Position numbers: made by a program. Shown piece after piece: positions 6,001-9,000 of a stretch of 64,000 bases of DNA (position 1 is the first letter of the stretch; each line of letters begins with the position of its first letter). The stretch comes from a virus (lineage: Duplodnaviria; Heunggongvirae; Uroviricota; Caudoviricetes). The DNA lies in IMG/VR virus record IMGVR_UViG_2939521961_000011; one strand, written 5' to 3'.

Positions 6001-9000
6001 CAAAATGGCAGCATAAAGTTTACGCATAATTACCTCTCGCTTTTCGTAAGCGTGCAGCAAGAACCGTATTGACGGGGATGTGTTATTCAGTCGGCAGTGC
6101 TACGCGCCAGGGGAGCAGTTCGCCGACCCGGTTTATCGGCCAGTCGGCTATGACGTCAAGGACATAGCGGAGGTAGCTTTCTGGCTCCACTCCGTTCAGT
6201 TTGCACGTCCCGATCAGGCTGTACAGCAGCGCTCCCCGCTCTCCTCCATGATCCGAACCGAAGAACAGGTAGTTTTTGCGGCCCAGACTGACCATCCGCA
6301 ACGCATTTTCAGCGATGTTATTGTCCGCCTCAGCCCAGCCATCATCTGCATAGTACGTCAGCGCCGGCCACTGGTTCAGGGCGTATGCGAACGCTTTCGC
6401 CAGTTCTGAGTGTCGCGACAGGGTTTTCATCTTTTCACGCAGCCAGCTTTCCAGGGATTTCAGCAGCGGTTTCGTTTTCAACTGACGTTCGGCAAGGCGC
6501 TGCTCCGCCGTCATTCCCCTTATCTCTGCCTCGATGGCGTACAGTTCGCCGATCCGTTTCAGCGCTTCCTCCGTCAGGGCTGACGGGGTGCGAACGTGCA
6601 CATCGTGGATTTTACGGCGGGCGTGAGCCCAACAGGCGGCTTCCGTTATCCGGCCATCCCGGTACAGCTCGTTGAACCCGGCGTATGCATCCGCCTGCAG
6701 TACACCACTGAACCCCGCAAGATGGGTCTGCGGATGGATGCCTTTTCTGTCCGGGCTGTAAGCGAACAACACCGCCGGCGCCAGCGTTGACCCGGCGTTA
6801 CGGTCGTCACGAACGTAGGTCCATAACCGCCCGGTCTTCGTTTTCTTATTGCCTGGCAACAGCACCGGGACAGGCGTGTCATCAGCATGGAGCTTACCGT
6901 CAGTCAGCACATAGTCCTGAAGCGCTTCTTCCAGCGGTGACAGTAGCCGGCAGCATGCATCCACCCAGCCCGACAGCAGTGAACGACTCAGCTCCACGCC
7001 CTGGCGGCCGTACATTTCAGACTGGCGGTACAGCGGGGTATGCTCTGCATACTTTGAGATCAGCACGCGGGCCAGCAGCCCCGGTCCTGCGATACCCCGC
7101 TCGATGGGCCGTGAAGGCGCGGGGGCCTGCACGATGGCATCGCACTGAGTACAGGCATGCTTTTCACGTACAGTCCGGATAACCCGGAAGGCGCTGCGCA
7201 TCAACTCCAGCTGTTCGGCGGCATCCTCACCCAGATAGCTCAGTGAGCCTCCACATTCCGGGCAGCATGATGCTGCCGGCAGCAGCCGTTTTTCATCGCG
7301 GGGGAGTGATTCGGGGAACGGTTTGCGGGTGCGGGTTTGACGCAGCAGGCGCTGCACGGCCGGGTCGTCAACCCGACCGGTAAGGGTATCACTTTCTTTC
7401 TGAAGTGCCTTCAGGTCAGCTTCCATCTGTGCGATACGACGGGAGACTTTTTCGGAGCGGCTGCCGAAGTTCATCCGGCGCAGCTTATCCAGCTGTGCCT
7501 GCAGATGGTCTATTTCGCGTTCACGCTCGTTCAGCTTTTCCAGCAGGGCACGGTTCAGCGCCTCCTGTTCGGCAAGGAGACGTTTCAGTGCATTGATATC
7601 GTCAGGAAGTGAGCTGCTCATACCGGGTATATTACCAGGCTCATTCAGCGTCGACCAGGATAAAGAGGCTTACAACATAGTCAGGGACGTAAGCAGTCTT
7701 TTAGGCTGCCGCCAGTCGATACCTTCCAGCAGCATCGCCAGCTGTGCCGGTGTGAGGAACACTTTGCCATCCCGGGCTGACGGCCAGGCGAAGCGGCCGC
7801 GCTCCAGCCGTTTGGTCAGCAGACACAGTCCATCGCCGGTAGACCAGAGGAGCTTTACCTGACTGCCATTACGCCCACGGAAGATAAAAACGTGACCTGA
7901 CATCGGATCGTCTTTCAGCGTCGTCTGCACCTTTGCCGCCAGGCCGTTGAAGCCGTTTCTCATATCGGTGATGCCAGCGACCAGCCAGATCTTTGTCCCT
8001 GATGGTAATGGGATCAACGTTTGAGCTCCCGTATCAGCAGGTTCAGGATATTTTCGCTGATGGCACCATTCAGACGGAGTGATCCGTGCCGGAACGTCAC
8101 TTCACAGCTGATATTGAGTGATTCAGGTGTCGCAGCAGCTACAGGTTGTGACCGGGGGGAGGTTGTAGGGACAACATCTTCGGCATCAAGTGTTATCGGG
8201 AGCAGCTCAGGCACGTTGTTTTCTGTTGTTGAAGGAGGACGTAGTTTTCCTTCGCGCCAGTACTGGCGCCACTTGAACAGCAAATTATCGTTGATCCCAT
8301 GCTCACGAGCGAGTTGCGCTACGGAGATCTCTGGTCGATGCGAGAGTTCAACCATTTTGATTTTGAACTCAACGGGATAATTAGGGCTTTTTTTACGCAC
8401 TGCGGTTAATGATTTCATGGATAGCGTCCACCATATTTGGTGTCCACTATTCTCTCAGGAATTTCAGGATCTGCCAGACGGTGCTGAGACGACGCTTACC
8501 GCTTTTCTGCAATAAAAAAGGCGCCATTTCTGGCGCCCGTATATGGGTTATAAAATTCAGCTGATACTGATGCCTGCGGTGGCTTTCTTCATCACCACAA
8601 CCAGCAAATCGCTGATACTTGCTGTGGGATACCAGTCATTTACCAGCCATGCTGACACCGAAAACTCCAGCGTCATGTGACCGTGACCGGCAGGCATATC
8701 AATAACGCCACTGTAAATCAGCGTATTATCCAGCGCGGTACGGTTATAAATTTCAGCACCGTTTTTCCGCACTATCAGACGGCATGAGGAGTAAATATCA
8801 GTATGCTCTCTCTCATGCTTAGCGCCACTGAATGCCACCGCCGGAATAACAATCTGCCGGTCAAACGGCTGATCGTCATAAACCCTGACGGTAATGGTCC
8901 CTGATGGCCACCGTTCCGGTGCACGGGAGTCCCGGGGGAAAGCTTTGCCCACTGTTTTAACGAGATCGCCTTCAATCTGGTTCGCGGACAGTTTTCCCAG

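Follow-up and report, generated by a model that had tools for sequence, protein, structure and literature searches.

The question raised by this locus is how an insertion sequence came to lie between the prophage genes J and lom, and what it may have changed for lom. The window, that is, the whole stretch of 64,000 nucleotides that was analysed, holds two prophages with a J-lom pair, and only the first carries the element. There, the tail-tip attachment gene J (minus strand, 8557..11952; 1131 residues) is identified by six J-specific Pfam domains and by its RefSeq annotation as gpJ. The lom gene (minus strand, 5428..6027) encodes a 199-residue outer-membrane β-barrel protein of the Ail/Lom family (Pfam Ail_Lom, PF06316, E 2.1e-120, with residues 1-199 aligned to all 199 profile positions). 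Downstream of J, the consensus scan and folding report a terminator-like hairpin (minus strand, 8509..8538), with its stem-loop at 8538..8519 followed by TTTTTATTGC. The scan counts 8 pairs, 6 of them G-C, a loop of 4 and then TTTTTATT, and the folding energy is -15.7 kcal/mol; this G+C-rich hairpin followed by a U-run makes it a predicted intrinsic terminator. The J-side remainder of the spacer, which holds the hairpin and the T-run, measures 49 nt. On the other side of the element, the lom Shine-Dalgarno AGAGG (minus strand, 6033..6037) directly follows a duplicated octamer, and AGAGGTAATT separates this octamer from the lom ATG at 6027. Before the insertion the spacer was 67 nt long, and the element entered it 11 nt past the hairpin and 10 nt short of the lom ATG. 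No coding sequence is broken, and the genes of the element are co-oriented with the phage late operon.

The uninterrupted spacer of the second prophage (minus strand, 55764..55831; 68 nt between its lom ATG and its J stop) had been taken by the sequence-only reading as the equivalent of the interrupted one, and it aligns well with the reconstructed empty spacer of the first prophage, at 87% mean column identity. It is, however, a paralogue and not the ancestral site. The hairpin stem is kept in this paralogue (window 55790-55812 against 8519-8538) by compensatory change (GGCGCC/GGCGCC against GGCACC/GGTGCC), a modest comparative support for a functional J terminator.

The element occupies positions 6046..8499 on the minus strand and is a complete ISEc22 of 2454 bp. 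Megablast of this segment against 5426 complete E. coli genomes reports copies annotated as IS66-like element ISEc22 that align with it over exactly 1-2454 in other contexts (inside cybC, inside an IrmA-family gene, on plasmids). Base by base, it is identical at 2453 out of 2454 positions to the copies named "IS66-like element ISEc22 family" by NCBI PGAP. ISEc22 is described as an IS66-family element of 2454 bp (PMC5001619), and the window element has this length and is near-identical to the named copies. Three genes are recognized, all on the minus strand. The first, tnpA (8014..8418), encodes a 134-residue helix-turn-helix accessory protein (Pfam HTH_Tnp_1, E 9e-12; NCBIfam NF047595, 82.8 bits for a cut-off of 74). 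The ensuing tnpB (7670..8017) encodes the IS66-type accessory protein of 115 residues (Pfam TnpB_IS66, PF05717, E 1.6e-38; NCBIfam NF033819, 119.9 bits for a cut-off of 50) and overlaps tnpA at 8014-8017, where the tnpA TGA stop lies within the TTG start of tnpB (TTGA). Lastly, tnpC (6083..7621) encodes the DDE transposase of 512 residues (Pfam DDE_Tnp_IS66, PF03050, E 9.9e-107, full profile; NCBIfam NF033517, 466 bits for a cut-off of 180), and Pfam also identifies the zf-IS66, LZ_Tnp_IS66 and IS66_C domains in its product.

The terminal inverted repeat upstream of tnpA, the left one in the element's own orientation (IRL; minus strand, 8474..8499), reads GTAAGCGTCGTCTCAGCACCGTCTGG on the minus strand, and the one downstream of tnpC (IRR; plus strand, 6046..6071), which adjoins lom, reads GTAAGCGTGCAGCAAGAACCGTATTG. 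The termini begin with a perfect 8/8 inverted match, GTAAGCGT at 6046-6053 and ACGCTTAC at 8492-8499, and 17 out of 26 terminal positions match overall. Elements of the IS66 family have terminal repeats of 20-30 bp that begin with GTAAGCG (PMC11946415), and an 8-bp direct repeat is the rule in this family (PMC6778807). All these family features are found here, namely a DDE TnpC, tnpA and tnpB upstream of tnpC with an overlap, GTAAGCG repeats and an 8-bp duplication. From the intact ORFs, which encode consensus proteins, and from the multiple near-identical copies present elsewhere, such as the about 7 carried by the E2865 chromosome, we infer that the window copy may be active.

Both ends of the element are abutted by the same octamer, CGCTTTTC, on the lom side at 6038..6045 and on the J side at 8500..8507. 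These are its only occurrences on the plus strand of the 64-kb window, and two fixed positions would carry the same octamer by chance with a probability of 4^-8, or ~1.5e-5 (1 in 65,536). The ends proposed from the sequence, 6046 and 8499, can be retained because annotated copies match over exactly 1-2454 and because four other ISEc22 copies have their own perfect 8-bp duplications (AGACAATA, AGATACGA, GTTGATGC and AAAAAACA) abutting the same termini. A target preference of ISEc22 for terminators was also considered and dropped, as no consensus emerges from the five duplicated octamers.

The empty site was reconstructed by joining both flanks through one octamer (1008 bp). Its best match is strain OkiPb01691 (99.8%), devoid of the element, and the orthologous prophage lacks the IS in OkiPb01691, 97-3250 and EH2252, with a single copy of CGCTTTTC in each. 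Over its 1008 bp, the reconstruction has between 2 and 7 mismatches to these three empty sites, all lying away from the insertion point, and the junction is identical. The locus reads rsmF-yebV-yebW-pphA-nleG7, followed by tail fibre, lom and J, and matches the chromosomal site of the occupied prophage. EH2252 is an O26 strain and carries plasmid pO26_EH2252_3. These three orthologous sites are stronger evidence than the paralogous locus on which the sequence-only reading had relied, and its structural claim of an IS66-family element flanked by the J terminator and the lom Shine-Dalgarno, with a perfect 8-bp target duplication, stands on domains, positions and empty sites alike.

The spread of the insertion was followed with a query of 600 bp that spans the boundary of lom and the IS, counted at a coverage of at least 80%, and 92 out of 5426 complete E. 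coli genomes carry it. Among the matches listed (40 of the 92), all 40 have full coverage, 99.7-100% identity and adjoining annotations for lom and the ISEc22 transposase. O26:H11 strain 11368, RM8426 and RM10386 are among the occupied genomes. In strain 11368, RefSeq annotates ISEc22 at NC_013361.1 2537752-2540205, between ECO26_RS13625 (lom) and ECO26_RS13645 (gpJ), and the insertion is therefore already known from public annotation, real but ordinary. Common to 92 complete genomes including the reference 11368, the junction marks a lineage that inherited it and is not specific to one strain; within O26 it is young and polymorphic. It post-dates the split from the empty-site strains and yet was inherited by a whole sub-lineage; the term "recent", which had been applied to it, therefore holds in evolutionary terms only (1 nt from the multi-copy consensus, polymorphism within O26) and not for a fresh event. 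As a marker, the presence or absence of the junction divides O26 genomes cleanly, with 92 complete genomes occupied and at least 97-3250, EH2252 and OkiPb01691 empty. The value of the observation is otherwise mostly bookkeeping, since the element, the family rules and the insertion were already annotated.

What the element does to its neighbours depends on its orientation. The lom gene borders the IS end and lies downstream of tnpC on one and the same strand: 55 nt separate the tnpC stop (6083-6085) from the lom ATG, and these take in 37 nt of IS terminus, then the octamer and AGAGG. The end beside lom had been called the left one, which is correct in window coordinates, whereas in the element's own orientation it is the right end, with its 37 nt of IS after the tnpC stop. 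Because lom lies beside the right end and downstream of the co-oriented tnpC, any reading of lom from the IS would be read-through of the transposase transcript, and such read-through is geometrically possible.

One alternative is that the insertion is polar or damaging, with lom and the side tail-fibre genes cut off from upstream transcription, their expression lowered and the prophage decaying. The addition of 2.46 kb between J and lom would favour it, as would a frameshifted replication-type gene in the same prophage of 11368. Among 50,697 phage records, moreover, no record holds both halves of the occupied junction, although lom-only and IS-only halves are present there; this absence may, however, reflect sampling. 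Lambdoid late transcription is Q-antiterminated and ignores terminators. The IS genes point the same way as the late operon, and the lone minus-strand terminator candidate within the IS (6786..6773) has a poor T-run. The lom and tail-fibre ORFs are also intact and identical to those of the empty-site strains, the Lom protein (WP_001230428.1) being the same in occupied and empty-site genomes. Taken together, damage of this kind appears unlikely.

It could instead be that the element drives lom, with Lom of the lysogen placed under IS control by the transposase promoter or by a promoter at the IS end, outward-facing or hybrid; the sequence-only reading had likewise suggested that lom may be read from IS sequences. 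Lom is expressed in lambda lysogens (PMC7067206; PMC1151598), so some promoter must feed the gene; the literature search found no paper mapping a lom promoter. The short distance and common orientation of tnpC and lom would suit such control, and the consensus scan returned no terminator-like site between them on the minus strand. Against it, the consensus scan finds no sigma-70-like site in 5900-8700, and a relaxed scan (at least 8 matches out of 12, A2 and T6 required) finds no promoter-like sequence in the 300 nt upstream of lom, whether occupied or reconstructed empty. With no match in either scan, neither an IS-borne nor a native proximal lom promoter has sequence support, and an outward promoter at the IS end is accordingly not suggested by the scans. 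Transposase promoters are typically weak. Finally, the predicted accessibility of the lom Shine-Dalgarno is unchanged, 0.10 with the IS and 0.12 without it, when 150 nt upstream and 40 nt downstream of the lom ATG are folded in both configurations. Control of lom by the element is therefore quite improbable. On these accessibility values we also dropped a possible sequestration of the lom ribosome-binding site by the IS end.

A broader proposal would have ISEc22 rewire the lysogenic expression of Lom, an adhesion-associated protein, in one O26:H11 sub-lineage, either by coupling it to the transposase transcript or by cutting it off from a native promoter. We regard this as a long shot; if true, the rewired Lom would be a lineage-specific surface phenotype. 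Comparing an occupied with an empty strain that has the same lom gene would be a natural experiment through which the lysogenic lom promoter could be located.

Strain 11368 provides the closest comparison. It carries the same element at the same site, in the same orientation and with the same 8-bp duplication, and the window is collinear with NC_013361 from 2,531,707 for 32,599 bp with 24 mismatches, after which the two diverge. The first 13 kb contain only 3 mismatches, all within the IS (7040, 7347 and 8256), and 10.9 kb of flanks are identical. Position 7040 is the sole difference between the window copy and the common ISEc22 copy; it is synonymous, and among complete genomes 7040A recurs in a single unrelated one. 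Two nucleotides set the 11368 copy apart from the consensus, and both changes are non-synonymous (7347G, TnpC L92P; 8256A, TnpA R55C), whereas the window copy encodes consensus TnpA and TnpC. A single old insertion does not by itself predict three differences confined to the IS, and gene conversion between IS copies or copy-specific mutation is suggested in addition. The remaining reading, in which there was no simple insertion and the IS came by homologous recombination between IS copies or by a larger rearrangement, the octamers being alike by chance, can point to the prophage rearrangement relative to 11368 that the window does hold beyond 32,599, but it is almost certainly wrong and effectively refuted by the three orthologous empty sites, in which the flanks are joined through one octamer, with the identical octamers abutting the exact IS ends and 32.6 kb of collinearity with 11368 also standing against it.

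Other features of the window deserve mention. Within the collinear part, 8 mismatches to 11368 are clustered in 73 nt of a tail gene (18372-18444) on a near-identical background, which looks like a small recombination patch. Between a tail-assembly gene (12295-12876) and J, ~340 nt (11953-12294) contain no convincing ORF and no Rfam match; this gap measures ~245 nt in the empty-site strains. An Rfam scan of the whole window returned no RNA family in or beside the IS or in this gap. The strain of the window is not 11368, as the prophage early region and the right-hand neighbour differ. Beyond 32,599 (32600-52000), the early region, the integrase (49980-51275) and the right-hand neighbour match a different prophage pair, the neighbour consisting of nleC and then the tail fibre, lom and J of the second prophage. 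The matching pair in 11368 lies ~370 kb upstream (~2.16-2.18 Mb) on the same strand. Such a join on one strand resembles a junction of the duplication or translocation type, or else a hybrid prophage. Window 30000-54000 is contiguous in no complete RefSeq genome, the best coverage being 89%. In 11368 (NC_013361 2164794-2169881), ISCro1, another member of the IS66 family, splits the excisionase gene of the second prophage pair, and IS600 splits its integrase gene, whereas both genes are intact in the window (49000-51300). The Rfam matches in 32744-46533 are typical of lambdoid prophages and comprise STnc100 (32744-32913), three tRNAs (35553-35799), sok (39829-40003), a C4 antisense RNA (40712-40796), isrK (40822-40896) and DicF (46482-46533).

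The account that we favour, and hold to be very probably correct, is one simple ISEc22 transposition into the J-lom spacer, inherited since and near-neutral with read-through, the functional part being what we infer. No observation speaks against the structural part. The DDE transposase TnpC, acting with the accessory proteins TnpA and TnpB, would have inserted the element into the 67-nt spacer of a lambdoid prophage beside pphA, in an enterohaemorrhagic E. coli of O26:H11 type. Staggered cleavage of the target followed by gap repair would have duplicated CGCTTTTC, so that the IS now separates the J terminator from the lom ribosome-binding site. This would have been a single event in the ancestor of one O26 sub-lineage, which has presumably transmitted it ever since. 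The consequence is most likely minor: in lytic growth, late transcription antiterminated by Q would cross the added 2.46 kb and reach lom and the side tail-fibre genes, and in the lysogen lom would receive at most weak read-through from the transposase transcript.

Compared with known systems, the anatomy of the window element stays within the IS66 family norm and shows no departure from it. The prototypes IS66 and IS679 (Machida 1984 and Han 2001, as cited in PMC6778807) likewise possess three ORFs in the order tnpA-tnpB-tnpC, a tnpA/tnpB overlap, a DDE TnpC, imperfect GTAAGCG repeats and an 8-bp duplication, although the window element is a different member of the family. ISEc8, a related E. 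coli element, covers ~73% of the query made of the IS plus its flanks, at ~85% nucleotide identity. Regarding the insertion site, lom of phage lambda likewise follows J after a short spacer. Unlike the lambda junction, however, the spacer is here split by ISEc22, while its uninterrupted form is found both in the second prophage of the window and in the empty-site strains.
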